In this document: positions 7,974 to 26,579 of the stretch, piece after piece
How the letters are laid out: each line of letters starts with the position of its first letter
Numbering within the stretch: the first letter of the stretch is position 1
Translations under genes and position numbers: made by a program
Source of the DNA: an uncultured Thiothrix sp.
GTDB taxonomy: Bacteria; Pseudomonadota; Gammaproteobacteria; Thiotrichales; Thiotrichaceae
Length of the DNA stretch: 64,000 bases
Reading direction: 5' to 3'
NCBI GenBank assembly: GCA_964420315.1
Contig: CAYQTB010000001.1
Coordinates: 24,310 to 88,309, forward strand
The notes under the pieces: model-generated
The model's input: the letters and a program-made list of their open reading frames with translations, nothing else
Databases searched by the model: none
What the model was told of the DNA's origin: nothing

Positions 7974-8014
7974 GCCTCAACATTCTCTACTAAAAAGGGT
8001 CGGATAAAACCGTG

Positions 8015-8042
8015 ATCATACTATGGAATAATAACAGGGCAA
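8015..8042 (-). promoter_or_regulatory. candidate sigma70 promoter for the aminotransferase gene
   Basis: The minus strand reads TTGCCC-N16-TATGAT, ending about 40 nt upstream of the ATG at 7973. Pattern match only. Confidence 0.3.
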
Positions 8043-8219
8043 ATGTAGGGTAATCGCTTAATCGTTCGGGTACGGGGGTAACGGCGAAGCCGCAGAAGAA
8101 GAGCATCAGGTGGAAATAGGAGTAGGGTGCATCAGCATGTTGATTTATGACATAAACTATCCTGCGGTCTTGGCGATTACCAAGAGCTCGCAGGATTGGC
8201 TAAAACCTAAAAGGCTTAA

Positions 8220-8675
8220 TTACAAACCGAAATCGTCTGTTGGAATACCCAAATCACGGCAAATTTCGCGCACGACTTGTTTTTCCTTGTCATCAAATGA
8301 GCCATCAGCGCTGCCGATTGCCATGCAAACCCGTACCATTAAACGAGCAGCTTCGGGTTTGCTACGCAGCTTACCGATCATTTTCAGAGCTTCGGCTTTA
8401 CCGATTTCATTGTCAAATTCAAAGTTTTCGGTCACTTTGTTGAAAACGGCAATCACGTCTTTGGTGTCAAAGACTTTCAACTCATCCGATTGCTGGATGA
8501 ATTTCATCATCTTTTGTTTTTCGGATGAATCAATACTGCCATCCGCCGCTGCGACTAAACCGCAACCAGCAACACAGGCTTCCATGAATTCACGGTTTTT
8601 AAATTTACCGACTTCAGTCGCCAATTTAGCACGAGCTTCCCCGGCTTTTTGTTTCAATGTATCAAAAAATGACAT
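8220..8675 (-). CDS. terB: tellurite resistance protein TerB
   Basis: 151 aa. Two TerB repeats: AAADGSIDSSEKQKM and GSADGSFDDKEKQVV. Confidence 0.85.
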   Translation of the reverse strand: MSFFDTLKQKAGEARAKLATEVGKFKNREFMEACVAGCGLVAAADGSIDSSEKQKMMKFIQQSDELKVFDTKDVIAVFNKVTENFEFDNEIGKAEALKMIGKLRSKPEAARLMVRVCMAIGSADGSFDDKEKQVVREICRDLGIPTDDFGL

Positions 8676-8826
8676 AGATAATCTCCTTAATAATTATAGC
8701 ATTATGCCAATAATTTCTTTTTGTGATTCAACGAAGAAATAATCGAAAGCCCAATAAAGGCAACGCCGATCAAACCTGTAATAATTTCTGGGGTATGGAA
8801 TTGAATACTAAAAAGGACATACGAAA

Positions 8827-8853
8827 ACAGGCACCTTAAACCAAGATGCCTGT
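8827..8853 (-). terminator. weak hairpin (possible attenuator) between the distal terD gene and terB
   Basis: 7-bp stem acaggca / tgcctgt with a 13-nt loop. On the minus strand it is followed by TTTCGT. It sits in the 217-bp gap between the stop at 8893 and the terB start at 8675. Confidence 0.3.
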
Positions 8854-8892
8854 CGACACATGTATATATGTGGTCACCACATAACACGGAAT

Positions 8893-9471
8893 TTAGCCAA
8901 GATTAACGCCCATTGATGCCGCCATCGGGCCTAAACCACCGGCAAAACCTTGACCCACTGCCTTAAATTTCCAGTCAGCATTATGGCGATACACTTCACC
9001 AAACAGCATGGCGGTTTCCACGCTGGCATCTTCCGACAGGTCATAACGCGCAATTTCAGTATTATCTGCCGCATTCACCAAACGGATATAGGCATTGCTG
9101 ACTTGCCCAAAGTTTTGACCGCGTGCTTCAGCATCGTGAATAGTCACGGCGAATACCAATTTCTTGACGTTTTCGCCCATGCCTGCAAGGTTCAATTTCA
9201 CCTGTTCATCATCACCAGCACCTTCGCCGGTTTTGTTATCGCCCAGATGTTCGACATTGCCGCACACGGATTTTTTGTTATTGTAAAAAATGAACGCGTC
9301 ATCCGATAATACTTTGCCGTTTTCGCCCAACATAAACGCAGAGGCATCCAAATCAAAGCCGGCGCCATCAGTTGCACGGGTATCCCAACCTAAACCCACG
9401 ATAACATTAGTTAAACCCGGTGCTTCTTTGGTTAAAGAAACGTTGCCACCTTTTTGTAAACTAACAGCCAT
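8893..9471 (-). CDS. terD: TerD-family stress protein (TerD/TerE paralog)
   Basis: 192 aa; [13 protein letters not shown] start; Ca-binding signature [13 protein letters not shown]; [14 protein letters not shown] tail. Confidence 0.9.
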
Positions 9472-9508
9472 TGTAAAACTCCATTATCTTAATCGTTGAG
9501 TAAAAATC

Positions 9509-10087
9509 TTAACCAATTTGAATGCCAAATTGATCACACATTGCTTTTAAACCACCCGCATAACCTTGCCCAACCGCACGGAATTTCCATTCCTCGTTAT
9601 GGCGGTACAGTTCACCGAAAATCATTGCCGTTTCGGTGGAATAATCTTCTGCCAAGTCGTAACGCACGATTTCTGTGCCCGTAACATCATTAACCACACG
9701 AATGAAAGCATTCGCCACTTGTCCAAAATTCTGCCGACGTGCATCCGCATCATGAATGGTGACAGTAAACGCAATTTTTGTAATCTCAGCAGGAACCTTG
9801 CTTAAATCCACTTTCATTGCCTCATCGTCACCATCGCCTTGCCCGGTACGGTTATCACCGGTGTGTTCGACGGAACCGTCAGTGGATTTCAATTGGTTGT
9901 AGAAAATGAAATCCGCATCACCACGTACTTTGCCACTCGCGGTCAACAAAAACGCACTGGCATCCAAATCAAACGCGGAACCATCGGTACTGCGCTCATC
10001 CCAACCCAAACCGACTAAGATTTTGGTCAAACTGGGGTCAGTTTTGCTTAAGGAAAGGTTACCACCTTTTTGTAAACTCAATGCCAT
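9509..10087 (-). CDS. terD: TerD-family stress protein (TerD/TerE paralog)
   Basis: 192 aa; [13 protein letters not shown]; [13 protein letters not shown]; [14 protein letters not shown]. Tandem paralog of 8893-9471. Confidence 0.9.
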
Positions 10088-10131
10088 GACTTGTCCTCCT
10101 TGATGAATATTTTTAATATAATGTTAATACA

Positions 10132-11343
10132 CTATTTAGAACCAGCCTGCCAATTCAGACCCCAGTGGTAGGCTTGATCCATTTCTTTATGCCCACGGAA
10201 ATAACGTACTTCACGGTTGACTTGCAACGCGCCATTGATGTTTTCCAGCAAGACTACCGCACACATACCCAGTGAATTGCTGCCTTCGGTTAAACGAATT
10301 TCTAACGGCGGTTCATTCGGCACGTAAATCGTGACCACACCATCGGTTCGTGCCCAGTTGGGCGCACCTTCGTAGATAAAGGCATACACCAGAATACGCT
10401 TGAAGGTTTGCCATTGTTGCCCGTTAATGTACAGCCATTCGCCTTCTGAAATTGCGCCCGTGCGGTCATCGCCTTTGAGTTCGATATACGGGTCGCTGCG
10501 GAATGCACCAAAGCGATTGCCGAGGGCTTGAATCGCACTGATGGTGCCGTCACGCTGTTCGTACAAACAGCCAACATCCAGATCCACTTGCCCCTTGCTG
10601 CCACCACCGAACAAGCCACCCAGTAAACCACCACTTTTGGCAGCCGGTGCTTGATCACGATTCCAGTTCAGGTTGATACGGATTTCGCCGAAGCCCTCGG
10701 TTTTCTTTTCCAGACTGACTCGCGGCTTGGTTTTATCCAGCGTCACTTTGCTCAGGGAAATCGGCTTTTTCGCGGGTGCAGGTGGCGGCGGCGGTGCTGC
10801 CGCTGGTGTCGGGTCACTGATTTCCACCCCGAAATGTTCTGCCAGCGGTTTTAAACCACCCGCAAACCCTTGCCCAACCGCACGGAATTTCCACTGCCCT
10901 TGGCGCAGGTATAATTCACCCAGAATCAGCGCCGATTCAATCATGCCCTTGGCAGGCAAGGTAGCTTGCAACACCGCCTGCCCCGCCGCGTTTTTTACAG
11001 TGATTTGCAAGCTGGTGAATGCGCCGAAATTGGTGCGGTTTTCGTGAATCGTGGCGGTGAACGCGACTTTTTCGGTGTCGGCTAACAGATTCGGCAAGTC
11101 AACACTGAATTCGGCACGACCAGCACTGTTGCCGACAAACACGACGCTGCCATTACCGGGGCGCGGTTGCCCGTAAAATACCATGTCATCATCGCCGCGT
11201 ACTTTGCCGTTAGCCGTCAGGGCGAATGCAGAAATATCCACCTCTGCCCCACTGACTTGCACAGGCGATAGCAGGACTTCAACGTGCAGTTTTTCACGCG
11301 GTACGGGGCAATTTGCTCCTGCCACCAGTTGAGTCACCGACAT
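10132..11343 (-). CDS. terA: TerA-like protein (two TerD-like domains joined by a Pro-rich linker)
   Basis: 403 aa. The first TerD-like domain ends in [15 protein letters not shown] linker PTPAAAPPPPPAPAKKP follows, then a second domain (IRINLNWN..VDLDVGCLY). Confidence 0.8.
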   Translation of the reverse strand: MSVTQLVAGANCPVPREKLHVEVLLSPVQVSGAEVDISAFALTANGKVRGDDDMVFYGQPRPGNGSVVFVGNSAGRAEFSVDLPNLLADTEKVAFTATIHENRTNFGAFTSLQITVKNAAGQAVLQATLPAKGMIESALILGELYLRQGQWKFRAVGQGFAGGLKPLAEHFGVEISDPTPAAAPPPPPAPAKKPISLSKVTLDKTKPRVSLEKKTEGFGEIRINLNWNRDQAPAAKSGGLLGGLFGGGSKGQVDLDVGCLYEQRDGTISAIQALGNRFGAFRSDPYIELKGDDRTGAISEGEWLYINGQQWQTFKRILVYAFIYEGAPNWARTDGVVTIYVPNEPPLEIRLTEGSNSLGMCAVVLLENINGALQVNREVRYFRGHKEMDQAYHWGLNWQAGSK

Positions 11344-11353
11344 CGCGTTACTC

Positions 11354-11953
11354 CTAGAGTGCCGCCAATACCGCAGGCATCATATCGTTGGCGACTGCGC
11401 CCGCTGTGGGCGTGCCGACCGCTTTCATCTCCCAGCCGGCACCGTTACGGCTCACAATCGCCATGACCACACCCGTGTGTGCGCCTTTGTCGGACAGGTT
11501 GAATTTCGCCATTTCGGTATTGTTGCTGTCATCGACCAAACGGCAGAATGCACCGCCGACTTCGTTGAAGGTTTGACCACGGAATGAGCAGACGGTGAAG
11601 GCTAGGTGCGCGACATTGCTGGGCAAACGGGTCAAATCGACGAAAATGACTTCATCATCGCCCGAACCTTCCCCAGTCAGATTGTCACCGGAGTGGCGAA
11701 TTGAACCGTCGCGGCTTTCCAGTTGACGAAACCATACTACGTCAAGCAGGTTTTTTTGCGCATCCAGCAACAAGCAGGAAGCGTCCAAGTCGATGTCTGC
11801 CGCTGCACCACCACCGAACATGCTGCCGAAGAAACCGCTTTTTTTCGGTGCTTCTGCCGGATCCCAGCCCAAGCCCATACGCACTTTACTCAAACCACCG
11901 CCGTCGCTCTTTTCCAGCGAAATGCGTTGACCTTTGCTTAAACTTACAGCCAT
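11354..11953 (-). CDS. terZ: TerZ-like TerD-domain protein
   Basis: MAVSLSKGQRISL; GDNLTGEGSGDDE. I chose the ATG at 11953, which has GGAGA 5 nt upstream, rather than 11965. The stop lies 10 nt before the terA ATG. Confidence 0.8.
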   Translation of the reverse strand: MAVSLSKGQRISLEKSDGGGLSKVRMGLGWDPAEAPKKSGFFGSMFGGGAAADIDLDASCLLLDAQKNLLDVVWFRQLESRDGSIRHSGDNLTGEGSGDDEVIFVDLTRLPSNVAHLAFTVCSFRGQTFNEVGGAFCRLVDDSNNTEMAKFNLSDKGAHTGVVMAIVSRNGAGWEMKAVGTPTAGAVANDMMPAVLAAL

Positions 11954-11989
11954 GAGAATCTCCATCTTTCTGTATTGTTGACTCGTTAC

Positions 11990-12018
11990 ATCTTAGGGAG
12001 TCACCTGAAGACAGGCAA
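11990..12018 (-). promoter_or_regulatory. candidate sigma70 promoter for terZ-terA-terD-terD-terB
   Basis: The minus strand reads TTGCCT (12018-12013)-N17-TAAGAT (11995-11990), about 35 nt upstream of the terZ ATG, within the 104-bp gap after the AAA+ ATPase gene. Confidence 0.4.
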
Positions 12019-12069
12019 CACTCACCCAGAATTGTCAGGTTATTTCAGCTTAACGGTTGCAATGGCATG

Positions 12070-13260
12070 TCAATACAGCATTCCAAACAACCACAACGGA
12101 ATACGCTTGCCGTCACCCATCACCACATCATCCACCGCCACATACCCGTGCGGGTTGCCCTCCAACTGTTTGAGCGTCTTGTTTGCCCCACCAATCTCAA
12201 ACACCCACAGGTCATCCACCCGAAAATCGCCTTTGTCGTGGTAATGCACCTGATGCTGATACGCCAGTTGCGACACAAAAAAACTTTCACGGATCGAGCC
12301 GATATTCGGCGCAGCACATAAAGCGTAAAACAGGTTGGTATTATCCAGCAGCAGCTTGTCCGGTTTATTCACTGTACGCATCCCGCTGCCACCCCGCACA
12401 AGATGCACCAAACTCCCCGCACTCATGCGCTCCAGATATTTGGACAGCGTAGCCCACGACGCCCCCACCGCCGCACTCAGTTTGGATACATTCATCTCCA
12501 CCGGATCCGTGCTACACAGCATGTACAACACCTTTTTCAGCTTATCGAGCTTGAGCGGGTCGATGTTATACAGCCCGCACAAATCCGCGTCGATGGTCAA
12601 ATTAACCACTTCCAACAGCTTGCGGGTGTAATTGTCCAGCGACTCGCGGTAGAACGGGTATGCACCGTATTGCAGGTACTTTTTGAACTGCTCAATCGGG
12701 CGCAACGCCTGCATCACCTCCGCCGCAATAGCCACATGCCCCGCGAGGAGTTCCGCCAACGGATACGCCGCAAACATCTGTCCCGTTTCAATTTCCATAA
12801 ACTCACGCAAGGACAACACCGGCAAATCATACACCACCGCCCGCCGCGACAAATCCCCCAACTCATGCTCAATCCGCAGCGCCGACGAACCGGAAAAAAT
12901 CACCCGCAATTCAAACGTATCGCGGATGACTTTCAAATGCGCTGCAAAACCGCGTACTTTGTGGATTTCATCCAGCAGCAGCAATTGCCCACCTTCCTGA
13001 TAGAAGGTTTGCGCCAATTCATACAGGCTTACATCCACCATTGCCGGGTGATCACACGCCACATACAGAATGCGCCCTGCCTCCACCCCGCTGCTTTGCG
13101 CATATTGCAGTAGCAAGGTGGTTTTGCCACAGCCGCGTGCGCCTTTGATGCCGATAAGCTGTTCGCCGAAGTCAATTTTCTGGTGCAAAAAACGCCGGTA
13201 TTCCGGCTGCTTACGCGCCAAGATGAAGGCAGATGTTTGCCGCAAGATCGGGGAAATCAT
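12070..13260 (-). CDS. AAA+ ATPase with C-terminal DUF4143 (COG1373 type)
   Basis: 396 aa; Walker A GARGCGKTT; Walker B LLLLDEIH; C-terminal region ending IPLWLFGMLY, as in AAA_14/DUF4143 proteins. Confidence 0.8.
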   Translation of the reverse strand: MISPILRQTSAFILARKQPEYRRFLHQKIDFGEQLIGIKGARGCGKTTLLLQYAQSSGVEAGRILYVACDHPAMVDVSLYELAQTFYQEGGQLLLLDEIHKVRGFAAHLKVIRDTFELRVIFSGSSALRIEHELGDLSRRAVVYDLPVLSLREFMEIETGQMFAAYPLAELLAGHVAIAAEVMQALRPIEQFKKYLQYGAYPFYRESLDNYTRKLLEVVNLTIDADLCGLYNIDPLKLDKLKKVLYMLCSTDPVEMNVSKLSAAVGASWATLSKYLERMSAGSLVHLVRGGSGMRTVNKPDKLLLDNTNLFYALCAAPNIGSIRESFFVSQLAYQHQVHYHDKGDFRVDDLWVFEIGGANKTLKQLEGNPHGYVAVDDVVMGDGKRIPLWLFGMLY

Positions 13261-13293
13261 TTACTATAAAATCCATATTGGATAAAAACCGAT

Positions 13294-14364
13294 TTACTCT
13301 AGCCTAGAGTTTAGGCTATTAGCCCAATGACATGAAACCGTTTTCACACCTTGCAATACCACCGGCGTACTCACCTCACTCACCCGCAAACCGTAACGAA
13401 TGGGAGCAATGCTCAGGGGTTCCCCTCGCAAGCTTTGCAGGAAAACCTCTGCCAGATTGACCCCCGCCAGACACGCCATGCCAAAACCACCGGAAGGACG
13501 CGGATTAATTTCCAGCAAACGCGGATTACCTGCCGCATTCGCCTTGAACTGGATATTGAATAAACCATTCAAGCCATAATGTGCGGTCAAACGTTCGACC
13601 ATGCCTTGAATGTCGGTGTTATTGTCGATTGCCTGCCCATACCCTGCTTGCGGATGCTTTTTGCGCTGGATCGCGCACAGCAATTGCCCGTCACGCCCCG
13701 CACAATCCACGCTCCATTCGTCACCGGGCAAATGTTCCATCACCAGCAATTCGGGGAATGTCGGCGTATTTTCCATCCCTGCACGTAATTCTGCCAGCGG
13801 GATTTCGTATTCCACGCCCTCCAGCAAATGCGTGATGCTGTCGCGTTGCGTGTCCAGAATGCGGAATCCTAAGCCAAATACCGACTCAGCGGGTTTCACG
13901 CACAAAGCTGCGTGCTGGCGTGAAAGTTCCGCCACCGCCTGATCAAATCCGTTGCTGTCCGTCACCGCGATACACGCCATCGTGGATGCCACACTGGGCG
14001 GCAACGTGCGGTAAAACTCGCCTTTATGGTGTAATAACTTCAGTGTTTCCGGGGATGCCACCGCAATCAACTGCGTTCCCACTTGCGCAAAATCGGCTTG
14101 GTGACGCACCAGCAAGACCGCTTCTTTTGCAGGCCAGAAATAATCAATGTGATGCCGTTGGCAAAAGCTCAAACACCAATCCAGATAAGCTGCCCCGACC
14201 AAACCGGGCGATTCATGCATCGCTTCGTTTGCTGCTAATAAGGCAACTGCCGCAGGATTCGTATGGGTGGCGATGACGGTGACACCCTGACCCACACGGG
14301 CTTGGCGAAGGTTGTTAAATACCGAGGTAATGCTGGAAAATGTCTTATTGAACCAAATGCGCAT
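13294..14364 (-). CDS. ATP-grasp domain protein (Ter-linked biosynthetic cluster)
   Basis: 356 aa; CVKPAESVFGLGF; LLVMEHLPGDEWSVDC; LLEINPRPSGG, typical of the ATP-grasp C-terminal lobe. Confidence 0.8.
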   Translation of the reverse strand: MRIWFNKTFSSITSVFNNLRQARVGQGVTVIATHTNPAAVALLAANEAMHESPGLVGAAYLDWCLSFCQRHHIDYFWPAKEAVLLVRHQADFAQVGTQLIAVASPETLKLLHHKGEFYRTLPPSVASTMACIAVTDSNGFDQAVAELSRQHAALCVKPAESVFGLGFRILDTQRDSITHLLEGVEYEIPLAELRAGMENTPTFPELLVMEHLPGDEWSVDCAGRDGQLLCAIQRKKHPQAGYGQAIDNNTDIQGMVERLTAHYGLNGLFNIQFKANAAGNPRLLEINPRPSGGFGMACLAGVNLAEVFLQSLRGEPLSIAPIRYGLRVSEVSTPVVLQGVKTVSCHWANSLNSRLE

Positions 14365-14499
14365 GGTATGTCCTGCTTGGAATTGTAGTGATGATGACCT
14401 GCGCTAGTATGCCCGATTTGCCGCAATAATTTCAGGCATTTTCACCCCAATTCTTGCTATCATATTTGTGTGTAACCATGCAGCTCGGTAACAATAATT

Positions 14500-14973
14500 A
14501 TGATGAATTTACCTCTGGGGGCAAACCTGCCACTGACCGGCAACCGCTGGACAGTCCATCTACAACCACTCCCGTTCCGCAACAGCGGTGTCGGTTTGGC
14601 ACAAAGCATTACCACGCTGGGTTATCCGTTAGCGGGTTTGATGGGCAGCGGCATTCAAGTCACGCAAGGCGTTATCTCCGGCTTGTTTGGGGCGCACAAC
14701 GACATTCGCCTCTTGCAATTCACCGCACCGATCCAACCCGGTTCCAGCGGCAGTCCCTTGCTGGATGAAACGGGCGCAGTGTTAGGCGTGGTGTCGTCCA
14801 CGTTTACCCACGCGCAGAACATGAATTTTGCCATCCGTCACAGCTTGGCGATTGCATTAATGGAAGCGGCTAATATCCAATACAACCTACAAAGCAGTGC
14901 GCAAACGCTGTCAGTCGCGCAAATGGTGACGCAAACCCAAAACGCCATCTGGCGTGTAGAATGCGCCAGCTAA
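14500..14973 (+). pseudogene. truncated trypsin-like (S1) serine protease: C-terminal barrel only
   Basis: It contains LGYP..GVISG..IQPGSSGSPLLD (the Ser195-equivalent barrel). No His/Asp-bearing N-terminal barrel is present. The in-frame upstream sequence hits a stop at 14473-14475. Confidence 0.5.
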
Positions 14974-14994
14974 CTAACTACCAATGGATTTTTC

Positions 14995-16092
14995 ATGCAA
15001 ATCACTGTCGCTCTCGACCAAGGCACACTCAACCTGACCATCGAATCCGGCACGCATTCGCCGGATGAGCTCTTCGGCTTTGCGCAACGCCGCAACCCGA
15101 AACGCGCTTTCCTGTTTGTCTCCAACGTGTTGGGCAGGCACATTCCGGTATCGCCAGCGGTTATGCGCAACGCCACCGATACCCTTGCGGCGCAGATCCC
15201 TGCTGACTTGCCGGGACCGGTCGTGGTTATCGGCATGGCAGAAACTGCGATTGCGTTAGGTGCTGGGGTGCAACAAGCCCTCAGCCGTAACCGTGACGAC
15301 ACGCTGTACCTGTGCACCACGCGCCACCCGTTGGACTTGCCGATCTTGGTCGAATTCCGCGAAGAACATAGTCACGCCACCCAACAAGTGCTACACCTGC
15401 CGCAACACGCCGCCGATGTTGAATTGCTACGCACGGCACGTACTTTAGTGTTGGTGGATGACGAAGCATCCACCGGCAAAACCTTCGCCAATTTGTTGGA
15501 AGCCTTGCAACGCGTCGGACTGGATCAGTTTGAACGCATCGTTGCCGCGACCCTCACCGATTGGTCAGGCGGTGCTGCCGCCTCACGGTTGGGTGAACGT
15601 GCCACTGCGGTTTCACTGCTGGCTGGGCATTGGGATTGGCAAGCCAACGACGCGCCCCCGCCGGAAATGCCGCAAGTCGATGTATTGGGCACTGGCGAAT
15701 GGTGCGCCAACCCCGCGAATGATTGGGGACGGTTGGGCGTGCGGGAACATCGCGTAAGAAGAACCTCACCCCCCGCCTCCGGCGAACGCATCCTCGTCCT
15801 TGGTACGGGCGAATTCGTCTGGCCGCCGTTTTTGCTCGCGGAATACCTGGAACAGCAAGGCGCAACCGTGCATTTCAGCGCCACCACCCGTTCGCCGATT
15901 GCCCTAGGTCACAGCATCCAGCACCGCTATTGCTTGCACGACAATTACGGGCAAGGTATCCCTAACTTCCTCTACAACGTCGTGCCTGAAAATTACGACC
16001 GCATTCTATTGTGCTGCGAACCACCCGCGCATTTGCTGGATAAAACACTGATCACCGCCTTAAACCCCACCTGTGTGGAGTTTTACCCGTGA
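14995..16092 (+). CDS. phosphoribosyltransferase-domain protein with C-terminal TRSP domain (Ter-linked)
   Basis: PRPP-binding loop LVLVDDEASTGKTF; C-terminal literal TRSP motif (HFSATTRSPIALG). GTGA overlap with the next gene at 16089-16092. Confidence 0.75.
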   Translation: MQITVALDQGTLNLTIESGTHSPDELFGFAQRRNPKRAFLFVSNVLGRHIPVSPAVMRNATDTLAAQIPADLPGPVVVIGMAETAIALGAGVQQALSRNRDDTLYLCTTRHPLDLPILVEFREEHSHATQQVLHLPQHAADVELLRTARTLVLVDDEASTGKTFANLLEALQRVGLDQFERIVAATLTDWSGGAAASRLGERATAVSLLAGHWDWQANDAPPPEMPQVDVLGTGEWCANPANDWGRLGVREHRVRRTSPPASGERILVLGTGEFVWPPFLLAEYLEQQGATVHFSATTRSPIALGHSIQHRYCLHDNYGQGIPNFLYNVVPENYDRILLCCEPPAHLLDKTLITALNPTCVEFYP

Positions 16093-16823
16093 AGCCCTTA
16101 TTACTCACCGATTTGGATGACACGCTGTTCCAGACGGCGCGAAAGATGCCAGTGGATGCGGATAAAATCCCCGCAGCGCAAGGCAAAACCAGTGACAGCG
16201 GGAGCTTTATGTACCCTTGGCAACACGATTTCATCCACTGGGCGTTGGGTTGTATGACCGTGATTCCAGTGACGGCGCGGGGAATTGAGTCCTTCAGGCG
16301 TGTTCATCTGCCTTTTAAGCACGGCGCGGTGTGTGTGCACGGTGCTGCGCTTCTCACTCCCGACGGTCAGGTGGATGCAGCTTGGCATTCGCACATCCAG
16401 CCGCAACTGGCCGCCTATCAGGAACGCTTACCAGAAATGTTGGCAACCGCGCTGCAAATCGGTGAAACGCTGGGGTTATCTTTACGTGGCTGGCTGGAAT
16501 CGGTAGAAGACACCGCAGCGTATCTGGTGATCAAAAGCAATACCGCCAGCACCGCAGACCTCCAGCAACTGCTGCACAGCTTACGTGACACCCTTAACTT
16601 GCAAGGCTTCTACACCCACATGAATGGCAACAACCTCGCCCTGCTGCCCGATTTCGTCAATAAACGTGCCGCAGCGGCAGAAATATTGCGGCGGCATACG
16701 GCTGAACACGGGCGTACCCCGGTATTCGGTATGGGTGATAGCGTGTCGGATTTAGGCTTCATGCGCTTGTGTGATTTCGCCGCGTTTCCGCCCAACACGC
16801 AAATTTGCAGGCAATTACCATGA
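16089..16823 (+). CDS. HAD-superfamily hydrolase (Ter-linked)
   Basis: N-terminal HAD motif I LLLTDLDDTLF; VIPVTARG (motif II); GMGDSVSDL (motif IV). Confidence 0.75.
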   Translation: MKPLLLTDLDDTLFQTARKMPVDADKIPAAQGKTSDSGSFMYPWQHDFIHWALGCMTVIPVTARGIESFRRVHLPFKHGAVCVHGAALLTPDGQVDAAWHSHIQPQLAAYQERLPEMLATALQIGETLGLSLRGWLESVEDTAAYLVIKSNTASTADLQQLLHSLRDTLNLQGFYTHMNGNNLALLPDFVNKRAAAAEILRRHTAEHGRTPVFGMGDSVSDLGFMRLCDFAAFPPNTQICRQLP

Positions 16824-17893
16824 GCGCAACCCACGGTTTTCACGGCTCGTATGCTGCCAGCGATGTCACGTTTTTGTTGCGGCAAATCGTGATGGAAACC
16901 ACGCCAGTAGAGGAAAAAGAACGCCTGATTCAAAGCGGACAACGCCATTACTCCGAAATGCTGACGCTGGAATCGCCGCCTTCCGCCGCGCATCAAGCAT
17001 TGTTCGAGCAAGCACTGGATGATGGGCTGGAACGCCTTGCCTGCGAGGTGCAAGCCTTGGCACTGGCCTTGCAGCACCGTCGCCCGAATCGCCCGATGGT
17101 GCTGGTGAGTTTCGTGCGGGCAGGTGTACCGTTGGGTGTATTGCTGCAACGTGCCTTGCGCGAATTGGGGGTGGAAAGTGCGCATTACGGCATCAGCATT
17201 GTGCGGGATAAGGGCATCGACCAAGCAGCGGTGGACTGGATTGAGCAACGCCATGCGTTCGCTGACATTGTGTGGGTGGATGGCTGGGTCGGCAAAGGGG
17301 CGATTCACGGCGAATTGCAACGCTCGTTAGGCAAGCGTTACCCTGATAGCGAGATTCCTTTGGTGGTGTTGGCTGACCCGACCGGCAAAGCATGGCTGGC
17401 AGCATCCGGCGAAGATTGGTTGATTCCGTTTGGCATTTTAGGCTCGACCGTTTCCGGCTTGGTGTCACGCTCGATTTTACGCGAGGATGGCGGCTGGCAC
17501 GCGTGCGTCAATTACGCGCATTTGGCGGCACACGATGTTAGCCAGTGGTTTGTCGATACCGTGGATGCTTGCCGCCGCTCTCAGCAAGGGGTTACGACGG
17601 TAGATTGGGCAGATGCGTTACGCCATACGCTGCTGGCACAATCACAAGCCACCCTTGCGCAACTGGTTGAAACTTATGATATTACCAACCTTAACCGCTT
17701 GAAACCGGGGATTGCGGAAGCCACCCGGGCAGTCATGCGGCGCGTGCCAGAACACATTCTGGTGCAGCGTCTCGATGACCCGAATACCCGCTTATTACGC
17801 CATCTTGCCGATTCGCGGGGCATTCCCCTGCAAGCGGTTGGGGATGGGCTTGCGCCATACCGTGCGATAACCATCATCAAGAAGACCACATGA
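16820..17893 (+). CDS. StiP-like protein (PELOTA-like N-domain plus PRTase-like domain; Ter-linked)
   Basis: N-terminus HGSYAASDVTFLL and the central motif VWVDGWVGKGAI match what I recall of the StiP family annotated in ter islands. The ATG at 16820 forms an ATGA overlap with the HAD stop. Confidence 0.65.
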   Translation: MSATHGFHGSYAASDVTFLLRQIVMETTPVEEKERLIQSGQRHYSEMLTLESPPSAAHQALFEQALDDGLERLACEVQALALALQHRRPNRPMVLVSFVRAGVPLGVLLQRALRELGVESAHYGISIVRDKGIDQAAVDWIEQRHAFADIVWVDGWVGKGAIHGELQRSLGKRYPDSEIPLVVLADPTGKAWLAASGEDWLIPFGILGSTVSGLVSRSILREDGGWHACVNYAHLAAHDVSQWFVDTVDACRRSQQGVTTVDWADALRHTLLAQSQATLAQLVETYDITNLNRLKPGIAEATRAVMRRVPEHILVQRLDDPNTRLLRHLADSRGIPLQAVGDGLAPYRAITIIKKTT

Positions 17894-18843
17894 CCACACG
17901 CATTTCCCCTTATCAGTTAGGCGCAACCTTGTACATGCCAGCAACACGCCCCGATTTGCTGGAGGTGATTTTACGGCAAAAAATCCCTGACCTACGTTCG
18001 ATGGTGATTTGCCTCGAAGACGCGGTGCGTGAGGATGAAGTCGCCACCAGCTTAAGTAATCTGCAACACTGTTTGCGCGAACTGCGCGGGCAAGAACGCG
18101 GCGTACCGCTGGTGTTTATTCGCCCTCGCCACCCGCAAATGGCGCATCAATTATTGACGATGCAAGGCATTGAGTGTATTGACGGTTTTGTACTGCCCAA
18201 GTTTGATAACCAGTCGTTTGCGGCGTGGTATGCGGTGGTGCAAGCCGCCCCCACACACTTGCTGTTTATGCCCACGCTGGAAACGGCGCAAGTATTGGAT
18301 GCGCTGGCCGTGCGCGAATTGTGTGAACGCTTGCAAGATAGCGGGATTAAATCACGCATATTGGCGTTGCGGATTGGTGGTAACGATTTGCTGTCGTGCT
18401 TGCGCTTGCGGACGCACCATGCGCATACCTTGTACGATGGCCCGTTGGGGTATGTGGTGGCGATGCTGGTGACGCATTTTGTTCCAGCAGGTTTTCATCT
18501 GACTGCGCCCGTGTTTGAATATTTTCAGGATCACACTATCTTGCAAGCCGAATTTCAGCGCGATTTGCTGCACGGCTTGGTGGGTAAAACCGTGATTCAC
18601 CCCAGCCAGATTGCGGTGATCCATCAAGCATTGAAAGTGGATAGCCGGGATTACGAAGCGGCGTTGCGGATTCTGGATGATGCCATGCCTGCGGTGTTCC
18701 AATTTGAAGGGGCGATGTGCGAACCGGCAACGCATCACCATTGGGCGGTGCAGGTGATGGAACGTGCCAAGCATTTTGGCTGCCATTTGCACGCGGTGGC
18801 GGTGGATGAGGGGATGGAGAAAGAGTGTGCGGCATTGTATTAG
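17890..18843 (+). CDS. HpcH/HpaI aldolase / citrate lyase beta (CitE)-like C-C lyase (Ter-linked)
   Basis: 317 aa; LYMPATRPD, ICLEDAV, RIGGNDL and VIHPSQI are CitE-like TIM-barrel motifs. ATGA overlap at 17890-17893. Confidence 0.8.
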   Translation: MTTRISPYQLGATLYMPATRPDLLEVILRQKIPDLRSMVICLEDAVREDEVATSLSNLQHCLRELRGQERGVPLVFIRPRHPQMAHQLLTMQGIECIDGFVLPKFDNQSFAAWYAVVQAAPTHLLFMPTLETAQVLDALAVRELCERLQDSGIKSRILALRIGGNDLLSCLRLRTHHAHTLYDGPLGYVVAMLVTHFVPAGFHLTAPVFEYFQDHTILQAEFQRDLLHGLVGKTVIHPSQIAVIHQALKVDSRDYEAALRILDDAMPAVFQFEGAMCEPATHHHWAVQVMERAKHFGCHLHAVAVDEGMEKECAALY

Positions 18844-18951
18844 AGCTGCCATCGTCAATATGCATAGCGATTAAGCGTAGGTTCGGTTGATACATCATGA
18901 AAATTTTTCGGTTACAATCGCCATTATTATTGTGTAACCTGATGTTGCCTC

Positions 18952-21900
18952 ATGCCTGTTAACAAAACCGCTGATACCCGACCTGCTGAATCCCTCGATT
19001 TGACTGCGCCAGTAGCACCGCCTACGCCACCTAAGCAGCAAGGTCTCAACTTGCCGGGTAAAGCCGCTGCCAAACCTGCGGTCAAGCCTGCCGCCAGCGA
19101 TGAAACCCCGATCATTTCCTACCGCCACGGCGAAACCCGCAAAAACAACCCCGAAGTGGGCATGGTCAACGATGCCAATGACCCCGCACAGCCCCAGACT
19201 GAATGGGCGCATAATCCGCACCTTGCCCCCGAATTGCAGTTTGATTCCAGCCGGGCGGCGGTGGAGCAATTGATTGATGGGGCGCTGGCGAGTGGTGATG
19301 CGGCGGTGATGCGCGAGGCGTTGGCGGAATTGAAGCGGATGCAGTCGCCGTTTTTGAATTGGGCGGGGAAGGCGGAACGTACCAGCTTTGCGGTGGATAC
19401 GGTGAGCTTGCATGTGCATGAGCGGATTGACCCGTTGAGTATTTTGTCGGCGTTGCAGAAGGGGATGAAGAAGAACCCCCCATCCCCAGCCCTTCCCCCG
19501 CAAGGGGTGAAGGGAGCGAAGAGGGCGGGTTCGTTTCAGTTGGGGTTGTTTAATGCGCCGTTTGAGAATTTGCCGTTGCGGGATGCGGTGGATTTTTACC
19601 ATCACGATAAGGGGTGGTCGAATCGTTTGGTGGCGGGGGATTCGTTGCTGGTGATGAATTCCTTGTTACAGAAGGAAAGCATGGCGGGGCAGGTGCAGAT
19701 GATCTACCTTGATCCGCCGTATGGGATTAAGTATGGCTCGAATTTCCAGCCGTTTGTGAACAAGCGCGATGTCAAAGACCGCAAGGATGAGGATTTGACG
19801 CAAGAGCCGGAAATGATCAAGGCGTTTCGGGATACGTGGGAACTGGGCATCCACTCGTATTTGACCTACTTGCGTGACCGCTTGCTGTTGGCACGCGACC
19901 TGCTTGCTGACAGCGGCTCAATCTTCGTCCAAATCTCCGACGAAAACTTGCACCACGTCCGCGAACTCCTCGACGAAATTTTCGGTGTCGAAAACTTTGT
20001 CGCCATTGTTACTGTTACAAAAACAACAGGAGCAGGTAGTCCAGAAATAGGTACGACAACTATTGCTTCAATTTGTGATTATATTGTTTGGTATTCAAAG
20101 AAAAAAATAGATATGAAATATAATCAGCTATTTAAGGCGAAGGTCGCAGGTGACGAAGGTGGTTCTCGATACAAATTAATGAATCAGCATGACGGTCGTT
20201 ATGCAACCACATCAGATATAAGATCGCAAAGCGGTGGAGAAACAACTTCTTTTCCAATCAATTTTTGTGGAAGAGTTTTTAAGCCGTCACCAATGTTTTG
20301 GAAAACGAATTTATCAGGATCAAATAGCCTTAAGCTATCTGGACGATTAGTTATCGAAGGCAATACTCTCAGGTTTTTGCGATTTTTAGATGATTTTCCT
20401 GTTTCACCGCTGAATAATATTTGGACAGATGTTGGTGGCATACAGAGTCGCACTGATTCTAAAATTTATGTCGTTCAAAGTGCGGTAAAATTGATTGAGC
20501 GGTGTATGTTGATGACGACGGAGCCGGGGGATTTGGTGTTTGACCCGACGTGCGGCAGCGGCACAACTGCTTTCGTGGCGGAGAAGTGGGGGCGACGCTG
20601 GATTACCTGCGATACCTCACGGGTAGCCGTAACGCTGGCAAAACAACGTTTGATGACCGCCAGCTTTGACTACTTCGACCTCAAATACCCGCAAGAAGGC
20701 TTGAAAGGCGGCTTTATCTACAAAACCGTCCCGCACGTCACGCTCAAATCCATCGCCAATAATCCCGAAATCGACATGATTTACGAGAAGATGCACCCGG
20801 CGGTGGAGCAAGCATTGGCGGAGTTGAATGCTGCGCTTGCCCTCACCCTAATCCTCCCCCGCAAGGGGGGCGGGAACAAGAACCTCTCCGAAACACCTTC
20901 TTCGCTCCCTTCACCCCTTGCGGGGGAAGGGTTGGGGATGGGGGGGATTGCCGAATGGGATGTGCCGTTCGCTTTTCCCGCCGATTGGCCAGAAGCCGCA
21001 CGCGCCCCATTCGAGGCATTCCACACCGCCCGCCAAGCCATGCAACGCCGCATGGACGACAGCATCGCCGCCAACGCCGGACAAGAAACCCTCTACGACC
21101 AGCCACAAATCGCCAAAGACAAACTGCGCATCACCGGCCCGTTTTCACTCGAAGCCGTGCCATTCCCCACCGTGCTATCCCTCAACGACGCGGCACAACC
21201 CGCCCAAGCCGACAACAGCATCGCCCGCAGCGGTGAAACCTCCCGCCAAACCCAATGGCGCGATGAGTTGATGAAAACCGGCATCCGTGGCAAAAACAAA
21301 CAGATGCTCAAATTCGCCGAACTCGAAACCCTGCCCGGCACGCGCTACCTGCACAGCGGCGGCACTCTCGACACCGGTGAGCGCGTGGTGGTCAGCTTCG
21401 GCCCTGAACACGCCGCCCTCGAACAACGCCAAGTCGAAAACGCCCTGCGCGAAGCCGGTGAGTTGTTCCCGCTGCCGAAAATGATCGTGTTCTGCGCCTT
21501 CACCTTCGACCCCGAAGCCGCCAAGGACATCGACGCGACCAAAGGCATCACTGCCCTGAAAGCGCAAATGAACACCGACCTGCTCACCGAAGACCTGAAA
21601 AAACAACGCGCCAACAACCAAAGTTTCTGGCTGATGGGGCAACCCGACGTGGAAGTGCGCAAACGCAAAGACGGTCTTTACGAAGTCGAAGTCCACGGTT
21701 TCGACTACTTCGACACCACCAAGGGCGAGTTGCAATCCGGCGGCAAAAACCGCATCGCCGTGTGGTCGCTGGATACGGATTACGACAACCGTTCCCTGTT
21801 CCCTGCACAAGTTTTCTTCCCGATGGCTGGCAAACAAGACGGCTGGTATAAACTCAAGAAAGACATCCGTGCTGAACTCGACGAAACGCGGCTGGATGCG

Positions 21901-22011
21901 TTCCACGGCACAGTTTCCTTGCCGTTTGTCGCAGGCGACCACAAGCGCATTGCCGTCAAAATCGTGGATGACCGTGGGATAGAATCGCTGAAAGTGATGG
22001 AGTTGGAGTAA
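18952..22011 (+). CDS. mod: site-specific DNA methyltransferase, beta-class N6/N4 (type III Mod-like), 1019 aa
   Basis: Motif IV IYLDPPYG (DPPY codons 19711-19722) precedes motif I FDPTCGSGTT (about 20539-20568). This is the beta permutation, with the TRD between the two motifs. The C-terminal tail ..RIAVKIVDDRGIE is typical of this long Mod family. Confidence 0.9.
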   Translation: MPVNKTADTRPAESLDLTAPVAPPTPPKQQGLNLPGKAAAKPAVKPAASDETPIISYRHGETRKNNPEVGMVNDANDPAQPQTEWAHNPHLAPELQFDSSRAAVEQLIDGALASGDAAVMREALAELKRMQSPFLNWAGKAERTSFAVDTVSLHVHERIDPLSILSALQKGMKKNPPSPALPPQGVKGAKRAGSFQLGLFNAPFENLPLRDAVDFYHHDKGWSNRLVAGDSLLVMNSLLQKESMAGQVQMIYLDPPYGIKYGSNFQPFVNKRDVKDRKDEDLTQEPEMIKAFRDTWELGIHSYLTYLRDRLLLARDLLADSGSIFVQISDENLHHVRELLDEIFGVENFVAIVTVTKTTGAGSPEIGTTTIASICDYIVWYSKKKIDMKYNQLFKAKVAGDEGGSRYKLMNQHDGRYATTSDIRSQSGGETTSFPINFCGRVFKPSPMFWKTNLSGSNSLKLSGRLVIEGNTLRFLRFLDDFPVSPLNNIWTDVGGIQSRTDSKIYVVQSAVKLIERCMLMTTEPGDLVFDPTCGSGTTAFVAEKWGRRWITCDTSRVAVTLAKQRLMTASFDYFDLKYPQEGLKGGFIYKTVPHVTLKSIANNPEIDMIYEKMHPAVEQALAELNAALALTLILPRKGGGNKNLSETPSSLPSPLAGEGLGMGGIAEWDVPFAFPADWPEAARAPFEAFHTARQAMQRRMDDSIAANAGQETLYDQPQIAKDKLRITGPFSLEAVPFPTVLSLNDAAQPAQADNSIARSGETSRQTQWRDELMKTGIRGKNKQMLKFAELETLPGTRYLHSGGTLDTGERVVVSFGPEHAALEQRQVENALREAGELFPLPKMIVFCAFTFDPEAAKDIDATKGITALKAQMNTDLLTEDLKKQRANNQSFWLMGQPDVEVRKRKDGLYEVEVHGFDYFDTTKGELQSGGKNRIAVWSLDTDYDNRSLFPAQVFFPMAGKQDGWYKLKKDIRAELDETRLDAFHGTVSLPFVAGDHKRIAVKIVDDRGIESLKVMELE
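19476..19523. repeat. GC-rich palindromic (REP/MITE-like) unit inserted in frame within mod
   Basis: Sequence: ccccccatccccagcccttcccccgcaaggggtgaagggagcgaagag. It holds an internal hairpin (cccttcccc-gcaa-ggggtgaaggg) and translates as NPPSPALPPQGVKGAKR. Its reverse complement matches 20900-20945. Confidence 0.8.
20000..20510 (+). other. low-GC segment of mod corresponding to the target recognition domain
   Basis: Hand counts give 40/120 GC (20041-20160) and 45/120 GC (20161-20280), against 68/120 in a res sample (24001-24120). The segment lies between the DPPY and FxGxG motifs. Confidence 0.7.
20838..20946. repeat. composite GC-rich palindromic repeat (two hairpin modules) inserted in frame within mod
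   Basis: Module 1 is tcctcccccgcaaggggggcggga (about 20853-20876). Module 2 (20900-20945) matches the reverse complement of 19476-19521 at 45 of 46 positions (hand alignment). It translates as LILPRKGGGNKNLSETPSSLPSPLAGEGLGMGG. Confidence 0.8.
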
Positions 22012-22015
22012 GTAA

Positions 22016-23167
22016 ATGTTCATAACCCGTATCAAACTGAAAAACTGGAAAAACTTTCGGGAGGTGGATGTTCCGCTGTTTCCGCAAACCTACCTGATCG
22101 GCCCGAATGCCTCCGGCAAATCCAACTTTCTGGACGTGTTCCGTTTTTTGCGTGACGTAGCAAAACCTTCGGGTGGTGGCCTGCAAAAAGCCGTAGAAGA
22201 CCGGGGGGGCATCGGCAAATTACGCTGCCTGCACGCCCGCAAGGATACCGAAGTCAAAATTGAAATTGATCTGGCTTTGTCGCTGGATGCAGAACCTGTC
22301 TGGAAATATGTATTGGGTTTTAAAGCCGAAGGTGTAGGTCGCCAACGTACCCAAGTCACTCAGGAATTGGTTATCAAAGATGGCAAGGTTATCCTTAGCC
22401 GCCCAGACCATGATGATGGCAGTGACCGTGAACGTCTGACCCAAACCTACTTGGAGCAAATCAGTTCCAATAAGGCATTCCGTGAGATCGTGGAGTTTTT
22501 TGCTGTCACTACTTACTTGCATATCGTGCCGCAACTGTTGAAATATGGCGACAAAATTGGCGGCAACCCGTTGGAAGAAGACCCATTGGGGCAGAAGTTT
22601 CTGGAGAGGATAGCCGATACCACCGAAAGGACACGCAAGGCACGGCTGGATAAAATTGAAGAGGCACTGAAAGTTGCTGTCCCCCGTTTTGAGGCGATCC
22701 GCTTCGTACGTGACGAGAAAAATGGTCATCCACATCTGGAAGCCTTATACGGACATCATCGCCCCAATGCAGGTTGGCAACGTGAAGACCAGTTTTCTGA
22801 CGGTACACTACGCCTGTTGGGGTTGTTGTGGATGTTGATGGAAGGTGACTCGCTACTCCTGATGGAAGAACCAGAACTGTCACTTAACAATGCCATTGTC
22901 GAACGTATCCCCGAACTGATTTACCGCATCCAGCGCAAGACCAAGTACAAGCGGCAAGTATTGATCAGCACCCACAGCGCAGCCCTGCTCAGTAATCCGG
23001 GCATCGACAGCCGCGCAGTGTTGATGTTGGAACCGGGTTCAGAGGGAACGCACATCCGCCCACCCAATACAGAAGAGTTGACCACGGTTAATGCTGGTTT
23101 TTCTGCTGCTGAAGTGTTGCTACCCAAAATAAGACCACAAAATATTGAGCAACTGGGACTATTCTGA
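22016..23167 (+). CDS. ABC-type (AAA_15/AAA_21-like) ATPase, OLD/AbiL/PARIS-like ATPase component
   Basis: 383 aa; N-terminus FITRIKLKNWKNF; Walker A GPNASGKSNFLD; signature-like FSDGTLRLLGL; Walker B LLLMEEPELSL; H-loop ISTHS. Confidence 0.8.
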   Translation: MFITRIKLKNWKNFREVDVPLFPQTYLIGPNASGKSNFLDVFRFLRDVAKPSGGGLQKAVEDRGGIGKLRCLHARKDTEVKIEIDLALSLDAEPVWKYVLGFKAEGVGRQRTQVTQELVIKDGKVILSRPDHDDGSDRERLTQTYLEQISSNKAFREIVEFFAVTTYLHIVPQLLKYGDKIGGNPLEEDPLGQKFLERIADTTERTRKARLDKIEEALKVAVPRFEAIRFVRDEKNGHPHLEALYGHHRPNAGWQREDQFSDGTLRLLGLLWMLMEGDSLLLMEEPELSLNNAIVERIPELIYRIQRKTKYKRQVLISTHSAALLSNPGIDSRAVLMLEPGSEGTHIRPPNTEELTTVNAGFSAAEVLLPKIRPQNIEQLGLF

Positions 23168-23766
23168 TGATCCATATTTGTCTGGCAACAGAGGATGCCC
23201 TGTCGGCAGCGGTGGCTGAAAAACTGCTGGCAGTTTCAGGCAAACCCTTCCAGATCACTCAGCGGCTGGGTAACAGCGGGTTTGGCTACCTGAAAAAACG
23301 GTTGCCTAATTTCAACCAAATAGCTGTCAATGTCATGCCGGTTTTGCTGCTGACAGACCTTGACAGGACGGATTGTGTCTTAGGTTTCATTGAAGATTGG
23401 ACAAAGGGGATGTCTGTATCAGAACGCCTGCTATTCCGTGTTGTGGTGCGTGAAATTGAAGCATGGTTGTTGGCAGACCAACAAGCCTTTGCGGACTTGT
23501 TGGGAATTGATTCAACCCTGTTACCCAATGAACCAGAAAATCTCCTAGACCCCAAACAGGCATTGCTGAATTTGGTCAGGCGCTCCAAGCAACGCAAGCT
23601 GAAAGACATGATCCTACCCGGAAAAAACACCAACAATACAGTTGGTCTAGGCTACAACACTGAGCTTGTTCGCTATGTGAGGGAATACTGGAATCCACTT
23701 ACCGCAGCCGAGTCTGCTCCAAGCCTTGCGCGTACTTTGAAAAGAATTAATGAGCTTGCTTCATGA
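23167..23766 (+). CDS. small Toprim-like protein (DUF4276-like), putative nuclease partner of the ATPase
   Basis: 199 aa. Strand-Glu start IHICLATEDALS, acidic DxD-type motif LLLTDLDRTDC, then REIEAWLLAD. This layout resembles Toprim/DUF4276. 1-nt overlap (TGATG) with the ATPase gene. Family call from memory only. Confidence 0.5.
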   Translation: MIHICLATEDALSAAVAEKLLAVSGKPFQITQRLGNSGFGYLKKRLPNFNQIAVNVMPVLLLTDLDRTDCVLGFIEDWTKGMSVSERLLFRVVVREIEAWLLADQQAFADLLGIDSTLLPNEPENLLDPKQALLNLVRRSKQRKLKDMILPGKNTNNTVGLGYNTELVRYVREYWNPLTAAESAPSLARTLKRINELAS

Positions 23767-26576: not shown

Positions 26577-26579
26577 ATC

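Follow-up and report, generated by a model that had tools for sequence, protein, structure and literature searches.

A predicted Ter-associated small-molecule biosynthetic module beside a terC-less ter locus in a Thiothrix strain

Introduction

What do the biosynthetic enzymes encoded beside ter genes make? This question, which has stood since 2012, is raised anew by a 64,000-nucleotide stretch of DNA from an uncultured Thiothrix sp. (contig CAYQTB010000001.1; hereafter the window), in which five enzyme genes adjoin a ter locus that has lost terC. Judged by its protein families, the locus is a Thiothrix copy of the small-molecule biosynthetic module associated with Ter. We favor, at a probability of roughly 70%, the reading that this module builds a small molecule from phosphoribosyl pyrophosphate (PRPP) and that the product is used together with TerD-family proteins. 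The window does not answer the question of the product; it sharpens the experiment.

The Ter system is present in thousands of clinical plasmids, and links have been drawn between it and gut fitness as well as resistance to tellurite, zinc, colicin and phages. Its association with a biosynthetic module was reportedly predicted by Anantharaman, Iyer and Aravind in 2012. This kind of cluster, computationally predicted in that year, is thus already known, and the present copy adds little beyond the damage to its ter locus and a link to a solved structure. What is new is a naturally terC-less locus with intact enzymes, the definition of a four-gene core, and the connection of the module's phosphatase to a crystal structure and an assay. 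The module has been described as the predicted maker of a nucleoside-like metabolite, or of nucleoside/nucleotide derivatives suggested to act as signals of an approaching threat (PMC8115787, PMC7824862), and papers from 2021 and 2025 treat its product as predicted only, with the 2012 prediction as their sole source (PMC8115787, PMC7824862, PMC12054061).

Five enzyme genes of the module

The enzymes are encoded by the following open reading frames (ORFs), the last four of which form a plus-strand operon:

13294..14364, minus strand: ATP-grasp ligase, 356 aa; transcribed away from the core, on the strand of the ter genes
14995..16092, plus strand: protein with PRTase_2 and TRSP domains, 365 aa; gene 1 of the conserved four-gene core
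16089..16823, plus strand: HAD-superfamily phosphatase of sugar-phosphate type, 244 aa; DxDxT motif DLDDT
16820..17893, plus strand: StiP-type divergent phosphoribosyltransferase (PRTase) with a C-terminal PELOTA_1 (L7Ae-like) domain, 357 aa
17890..18843, plus strand: CitE/HpcH-type, Mg-dependent TIM-barrel C-C lyase, 317 aa

An initial annotation, made from the letters of the window alone, had drawn these five ORFs with the ATP-grasp gene divergent on the minus strand, and this arrangement was recovered at the same positions. The three 4-nt overlaps that it listed are likewise present, with the tetranucleotides GTGA (16089-16092), ATGA (16820-16823) and ATGA (17890-17893); its reading of them as implying stoichiometric co-expression was overstated, since overlaps of this length suggest translational coupling. 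The mechanically called StiP ORF opens at a TTG (16805), and a database protein of 357 residues with 100% identity (P0001) fits the ATG at 16820, the start taken by the initial annotation. The catalytic signatures LVLVDDEASTGKT, TDLDDTLF, LRIGGNDL, VIHPSQ and LEINPRPSGG all occur in the translations, and all five genes are, to judge from their sequences, intact. The proposed identity, a Ter-associated module for a nucleoside-like metabolite, agrees with the Pfam assignments: ATPgrasp_Ter, PRTase_2 plus TRSP, StiP plus PELOTA_1 and C-C_Bond_Lyase, together with the HAD protein, beside TerD and TerB genes.

The first PRTase matches PRTase_2 (PF15609, 3.5e-60) and TRSP (PF12500, 1.7e-20), both above the Pfam cut-offs. 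Its translation carries the canonical PRPP loop VLVDDEASTGKT (also given as LVLVDDEASTGKT), which satisfies the Type I PRTase pattern of four hydrophobic residues, two acidic residues and a small-residue/Thr-Gly stretch, and D155, D156, T160, G161 and T163 are invariant across 26 homologues. Modeled alone, the TRSP domain reaches a predicted local distance difference test (pLDDT) score of 79, and its weak Foldseek matches (E 0.01-0.07) are to PRTase-fold proteins, a hint that TRSP may be a third PRTase-like domain.

The second PRTase matches StiP (PF11202, 1.7e-89) and PELOTA_1 (PF15608, 5.4e-25). Databases name StiP a cysteine protease. Structurally, the best PDB folds for its AlphaFold model (pLDDT 92) are hypoxanthine-guanine phosphoribosyltransferase-type PRTases (probability 1.0, TM score ∼0.5 on target), and no protease fold is found among the Foldseek matches of the model; StiP is thus predicted, at high model confidence, to have a PRTase fold. 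Its PRPP loop is the variant IVWVDGWVGKG, of which VDGWVGKG is invariant; the loop contains one invariant Asp but no Thr. Further along the protein there is a conserved His-x-Cys. The PELOTA_1 domain shows weak sequence similarity to L7Ae/Snu13 proteins.

The lyase belongs to C-C_Bond_Lyase (PF15617, 9.8e-103), and its closest solved relatives are the Pseudomonas aeruginosa acyl-CoA lyase beta chains 9nzb and 8khl (1.6e-8). In the alignment with these chains the LEDAV, lpK, ETA/ESA and IHPSQ motifs are aligned and conserved, while the G..DL motif (RIGGNDL vs FGSLDL) has only the G and the DL in common. The motif Glu and Asp are presumably the metal ligands. The ATP-grasp ligase retains an intact ATPgrasp_Ter domain (PF15632, 1.6e-41, residues 202-333) with the EINPRPSGG signature, and in a profile search its N-terminal domain resembles that of PylC-like amide ligases.

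NCBIfam models show sub-threshold similarity only, to carbamoyl-phosphate-synthase-like ATP-grasps, ribose-phosphate diphosphokinase and RipC/Ccl. For the salvage and lyase equivalogs the scores are 19-68 bits, where the cut-offs lie at 218-1027, and the RipC_Ccl model reaches 38 bits on the lyase (cut-off 375 bits); no CitD, CitF or holo-acyl-carrier-protein synthesis partner was found by Pfam among the scanned locus ORFs (8-31 kb). Ordinary purine/pyrimidine salvage was rejected on these scores, and citrate lyase on its score and the lack of partner genes among the scanned ORFs; membership in such families is what the initial annotation had named as evidence against its proposal. None of the five enzymes is covered by a PADLOC model.

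A four-gene core conserved across bacteria

A megablast search of the 5.5-kb region against plasmids and complete Escherichia coli genomes gave no match, and an exact-protein look-up of the lyase returned two 2-kb contigs only; relatives required protein-level searches. A scan with a StiP alignment, limited to one genome per species, recovered 592 relatives, from which 80 loci were kept and the locus proteins mapped by tblastn. These loci belong to Thiotrichales, Pseudomonas, Enterobacterales, Burkholderiales, Moraxellaceae, Sphingomonadales, Rhodobacterales, Rhizobium, Desulfovibrio and Melainabacteria. The window StiP shares 95% identity with the protein of T. subterranea and 93% with that of T. 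caldifontis.

Genomic neighborhood analysis reveals a stable core. The four plus-strand genes share the order PRTase_2, HAD, StiP, lyase in 69 of the 80 loci and in many bacterial orders, so the clustering goes far beyond chance. Junctions within the core are mostly overlapping or very short across the family, as estimated by a heuristic that takes the start codon nearest the upstream stop and therefore leans to short gaps. The ATP-grasp gene occurs in 47/80 loci (co-directional and adjacent in 30; divergent, as in Thiothrix, in 7), and a TerD-domain/trypsin-like peptidase gene lies between the ATP-grasp and PRTase genes in 27/80. Both are accessory, and the minimal conserved unit is four genes in fixed order.

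A TerD-domain gene is found within 10 kb of the core in 66/80 loci and TerC in 46/80. In the window, four TerD-domain genes and TerB (8220-11965) adjoin the ATP-grasp side of the module. As 34 of the related loci have no TerC within 10 kb, a linked terC is not strictly needed by the module. Homologues of the window's AAA_14 ATPase, methyltransferase, HEC-01A, Res-like helicase or UvrD-nuclease were found by tblastn in none of the 80 loci. Linkage of the module is tighter to TerD genes than to TerC or to any nuclease. StiP relatives are rare in phages (3 of 50,697 records).

Proposed pathway

In the pathway that we propose, one or both PRTases would use PRPP to attach 5-phosphoribose to an acceptor of central metabolism, either base-like or a carboxylate/amine. 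The HAD phosphatase would take off the sugar phosphate, which would render the pathway irreversible and leave a nucleoside-like rather than a nucleotide-like compound. The CitE-like enzyme would add or remove a two- or three-carbon keto-acid or acyl-CoA-derived unit, and the ATP-grasp ligase, where present, would use an amino or carboxyl group to form an amide. The product would most likely be a ligand or signal working with the soluble TerD-family proteins.

Several points weigh against this proposal. The order of the steps and the role of the product as a TerD ligand are inferred. With only one acidic residue in its PRPP loop, StiP may bind phosphoribose rather than transfer it. The sole biochemistry attached to the HAD protein is an activity on trehalose-6-phosphate, taken up below, a compound for which a PRPP pathway has no evident use. 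In line with the statement in the initial annotation that the product has not been determined experimentally, searches of a literature library turned up no paper reporting it, nor any substrate or phenotype for any core member, nor a phage-defense test of the enzyme module. The terZ-F genes alone confer tellurite resistance in E. coli (PMC8115787); the module is therefore not needed for the name-giving phenotype, and its role lies elsewhere. Finally, in Candidatus Thiothrix anitrata (CP072800, locus L006, 8171-10004) the PRTase_2 gene and the HAD gene each appear as two ORFs, with StiP and the lyase intact. The splits reflect either decay or sequencing frameshifts; in the former case they would show that the module can decay.

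The same enzymes could instead modify a macromolecule rather than make a free metabolite. Two forms of this idea can be considered: phosphoribosylation of RNA, guided by the PELOTA/L7Ae-like domain, or modification and ligation of a peptide released by the TerD-trypsin protein, with the ATP-grasp enzyme as peptide ligase. The fusion of StiP to PELOTA_1, with its weak similarity to L7Ae/Snu13 proteins, is consistent with the former; the placement of the peptidase gene between the ATP-grasp and PRTase genes in 27/80 loci, and the PylC-like N-terminal domain of the ATP-grasp ligase, fit the latter. However, HAD and CitE-like lyase families act on small molecules, many loci keep the four-gene core without peptidase and ATP-grasp, and in the window the peptidase gene is destroyed with the core intact. 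An Rfam search at a permissive threshold (7900-19100) detected no riboswitch or other RNA element. On balance, a macromolecular target is unlikely.

Strain-specific changes at the ter locus

Upstream of the core, the window holds these further features:

14500..14973, plus strand: remnant of a TerD-domain/trypsin-like peptidase, 157 aa, between the ATP-grasp and PRTase genes
14365..14499, no strand: spacer separating the ATP-grasp gene from the divergent plus-strand operon; presumed promoter region
12064..13350, minus strand: AAA_14 ATPase insertion of 1288 bp (AAA_14 gene at 12070-13260), outside the ancestral module
11354..11965, minus strand: TerZ-like TerD-domain protein, 203 aa (Pfam TerD, 1.6e-48)
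10132..11343, minus strand: TerA-like TerD-domain protein, 403 aa (Pfam TerD, 1.8e-39)
9509..10087, minus strand: TerD, 192 aa (Pfam TerD, 1e-89)
8893..9471, minus strand: TerE-like TerD paralogue, 192 aa (Pfam TerD, 9.1e-84)
8696..8815, minus strand: terC 3' remnant, identified by blastn against T. subterranea and Ca. T. anitrata and by junction sequences
8220..8675, minus strand: TerB, 151 aa (Pfam TerB, PF05099, 4.4e-25)

The strain-specific changes were defined by aligning the window DNA to the T. subterranea and Ca. T. anitrata loci and comparing the junction sequences and, for the peptidase, the translations. Relative to these two Thiothrix genomes, ∼0.94-1.0 kb of terC is deleted, including the start, and a 3' remnant is left near 8696-8815; with TerC as query, tblastn recovers only residues ∼288-344 in the window. 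The deletion is clean (8696-8890): the hairpin-containing spacer between terE and terC and the 3' remnant stay, and the downstream terB is intact and conserved. The classical terZABCDE operon is therefore incomplete here, the TerC membrane protein missing except for the remnant. On the strand opposite TerB, an overlapping 210-aa ORF (8110-8742, plus strand) has no family match and is probably spurious.

The peptidase gene has suffered an in-frame deletion of residues ∼20-239, with a junction at a CAGTC microhomology, which leaves the 157-aa ORF. The lost part takes in the putative catalytic His and Asp (read from the motifs TNAHV and TNDLALL), and in the remnant Pfam Trypsin_2 covers profile positions 66-144 alone. 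The full-length T. subterranea protein has 377 aa (locus L005, 7018-8151); in this protein a weak TerD-domain match (8.7e-5) precedes the trypsin-like domain.

The AAA_14 segment sits between terZ and the ATP-grasp gene, is flanked on both sides by the 7-bp direct repeat TTGCAAT, and is absent at the exact point in T. subterranea and Ca. T. anitrata. Its protein matches Pfam AAA_14 (4.6e-24) and the PADLOC candidate family PDC-S01 (1e-24), and this single-gene insertion contains no transposase. The insertion has replaced the last few codons of the ATP-grasp gene with ∼18 foreign ones, DNA homology stopping at 13351; the T. subterranea ortholog has 337 aa.

The description given by the initial annotation thus stands for the five genes themselves; it had overlooked the peptidase remnant ORF, the inserted ATP-grasp tail, the loss of terC, the AAA_14 insertion and the crystallized ortholog of the HAD protein. 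With terC deleted and the peptidase gene gutted, the membrane arm is missing from this locus, and the enzyme arm is kept.

Such damage raises the question of whether the cluster is a decaying relic in this strain, its ORFs open but useless. The terC deletion, the in-frame peptidase deletion and an AAA_14 insertion that alters both the ATP-grasp tail and the operon structure all fit a relic, as do the split PRTase_2 and HAD genes of Ca. T. anitrata, and a central part in Ter phenotypes, phage resistance among them, is reported for TerC in Klebsiella (PMC12054061). The substitution pattern argues otherwise. The five enzyme genes and the five Ter genes are full-length, and the ratio of nonsynonymous to synonymous substitution rates (dN/dS) against T. 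subterranea is 0.03-0.11 for the five enzymes and 0.02-0.11 when the Ter genes are included. Values for the enzymes are similar to those of the Ter genes and of the flanking aminotransferase gene; the TerZ-like protein is 98% identical to its T. subterranea ortholog (dN/dS 0.02), the TerA-like gene has a dN/dS of 0.06, and TerB is 95% identical. These ratios point to strong purifying selection on the five enzyme genes between this strain and T. subterranea. In addition, the 34 related loci without TerC within 10 kb show the same absence, and the present view is that of a 64-kb window, so that a second terC elsewhere in the genome is possible. Decay of the whole cluster is therefore improbable, and a retained module for a PRPP-derived metabolite is the preferred interpretation of this locus as well.

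The flanking gene, which encodes a class V aminotransferase, lies at 6783-7973, at the TerB end, in the window, and ∼5 kb past the lyase end (L005, 17378-18559) in T. subterranea. This difference implies that the ter locus, or the region around it, was rearranged between the two strains.

The HAD phosphatase and trehalose-6-phosphate

No significant Pfam match was obtained for the HAD protein, and Trehalose_PPase is absent even at E=1. A PDB sequence search matches residues 2-241 to 6cj0/6d3v, ‘trehalose phosphatase’ (7e-62), and both motif I (D8-L-D-D-T12) and the C-terminal GMGDSVSD align with the 6cj0 motifs. The 6cj0 sequence is 42% identical to the window HAD and 92.5% identical to the HAD encoded between the PRTase and StiP genes of the Pseudomonas plasmid pRBL16. 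From this identity to a module protein, the P. aeruginosa ‘trehalose-6-phosphate phosphatase’ (6CJ0/6D3V) is an ortholog of the Ter-module HAD.

Could the HAD protein then be a genuine trehalose-6-phosphate phosphatase, and the cluster belong to sugar or compatible-solute metabolism, or, in a related version, to ordinary purine/pyrimidine salvage and citrate lyase? The names of 6cj0, 6d3v and 6d3w (trehalose phosphatase) and of the pRBL16 gene (Trehalose-6-phosphatase) favor this, and both P. aeruginosa enzymes reportedly hydrolyzed trehalose-6-phosphate in vitro in work by Cross et al. in 2018; the lyase, for its part, weakly resembles RipC/Ccl and the beta subunit of citrate lyase. Against it, no trehalose-6-phosphate synthase or glycosyltransferase was found by Pfam, nor any citrate lyase alpha, gamma or ligase component, among the scanned locus ORFs, the related loci not having been queried for such partners. 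In 69/80 loci the HAD gene keeps its place between two PRTase genes, Trehalose_PPase gives no match to the protein at E=1, and the salvage and lyase equivalogs score far below their cut-offs. Trehalose synthesis was rejected on the Trehalose_PPase result, and this explanation as a whole is highly improbable. In the literature, Cross et al. 2018, on the P. aeruginosa ‘trehalose-6-phosphate phosphatases,’ is cited in passages of PMC7549927 and PMC6838324.

Since the scanned locus ORFs include no trehalose-6-phosphate synthase, trehalose-6-phosphate is probably a surrogate substrate of the HAD protein. The reported activity suggests that the natural substrate is a glycosylated sugar phosphate. 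A tentative extension, which we regard as a long shot, is that the core produces an unusual nucleoside from PRPP, for instance a doubly ribosylated one, as a dedicated signal to TerD-family proteins, and that the ‘trehalose-6-phosphate phosphatase’ would be the pathway phosphatase, acting on a glycosyl-sugar-phosphate that trehalose-6-phosphate mimics. If this were true, Ter would be a metabolite-signaled stress or defense system of a kind not yet described biochemically. In either case, crystal structures and an assay that exist under another name offer a starting point for substrate screening of the HAD protein.

Genomic setting and the restriction-modification neighbor

Chromosomal housekeeping genes on the flanks (ispG, trpF, a murein transglycosylase gene, suhB and proA), together with the 95% StiP identity to T. 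subterranea, identify the window as Thiothrix chromosome. Scans for consensus promoters and terminators (8000-19200) gave results at or below shuffled expectation, with nothing above chance; the intergenic region at 14365-14499 is mostly kept in T. subterranea and Ca. T. anitrata. In the whole 64 kb the 9-mer TGTGTAACC has just two copies (14469-14477 and 18931-18939). Each precedes by 20-30 nt the first ATG in a plus-strand operon, one that of the ter enzymes and the other that of the methyltransferase. It is not kept in T. subterranea or Ca. T. anitrata and was dropped as a candidate operator.

To the right of the lyase, a composite defense block occupies 18952-30107 on the plus strand. It begins with a Type III methyltransferase (1019 aa), followed by a HEC-01 pair (AAA_21 ATPase and DUF4276), a ResIII helicase (937 aa) and, as the last gene, a UvrD/PD-(D/E)XK helicase-nuclease (1175 aa); the Res-like protein matches Type III restriction models weakly. 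Between the helicase-nuclease gene and suhB lies a 231-aa ORF (30108-30803, minus strand) with no family match.

The position directly upstream of this restriction-modification (RM) block had led the initial annotation to propose a role in DNA- or phage-related conflict. Neither the 80 loci nor the three closest relatives examined (T. subterranea, Ca. T. anitrata and Thiofilum flexile) have this block next to the module. Its adjacency to the module is strain-specific, and position therefore gives no argument for a DNA-conflict role. That the product serves the RM system or a DNA-level conflict directly, for example as a precursor for DNA base modification, is very unlikely: the module does lie directly upstream of the Type III mod/HEC-01/res/UvrD-nuclease block, titles by Whelan et al. 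tie Ter loci to phage inhibition, and TerC is reported to give phage resistance (PMC12054061), but four queried proteins of the block have no homologue in the 80 loci, StiP relatives are confined to 3/50,697 phage records, and none of the five enzyme domains comes from a family known to act on DNA.

Comparison with known systems

At the level of single enzymes, the window lyase shares the TIM barrel and the metal- and substrate-site motifs with CitE-family acyl-CoA lyases (9nzb/8khl; RipC/Ccl citramalyl-CoA lyase). The similarity is distant only, and the locus lacks itaconate-pathway or citrate lyase partner genes.

Enterobacterial ter loci, carried on IncHI2 and IncFIB-HI1B plasmids of Klebsiella, Enterobacter, Salmonella and E. 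coli, likewise contain the five families, with the order PRTase, HAD, StiP, lyase, and their module proteins are ∼37-57% identical to those of the window; the HAD protein occurs in 2560 plasmid records. In a Klebsiella locus (L002) the module adjoins terZ/A/…/D/E, as in Thiothrix. Unlike the Thiothrix window, where the ATP-grasp gene lies on the ter strand, it heads the biosynthetic operon in Klebsiella. The Klebsiella locus also has extra components, namely DUF4236, the TerY/TerX von Willebrand factor A proteins and a TerY-C/PP2C/kinase triad; tblastn with the Klebsiella proteins found no DUF4236, TerY/TerX, TerY-C, PP2C phosphatase or Ser/Thr kinase in the whole window. The window differs further in having terB after terE, in the terC deletion, and in the peptidase remnant and AAA_14 insertion.

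pRBL16, a Pseudomonas IncP-2-type megaplasmid, carries the order ATP-grasp, TerD-trypsin peptidase, PRTase, HAD, StiP, lyase, followed by the ter genes. Unlike in the window, all of these genes are co-directional, a second HAD gene follows the lyase, and terC and a full-length peptidase are kept.

The closest counterparts are the chromosomal loci of T. subterranea, T. caldifontis and Ca. T. anitrata. These keep terC and the 377-aa peptidase, and they have neither the AAA_14 insertion nor the RM block beside the lyase. Their layout is otherwise like that of the window, with TerB, TerC, two TerD genes, TerA, TerZ and ATP-grasp in this order on the leftward strand, and the peptidase, PRTase, HAD, StiP and lyase genes reading rightward from the divergent junction. 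In T. subterranea the proteins are 91-98% identical to those of the window, and the 4-nt overlaps are shared.

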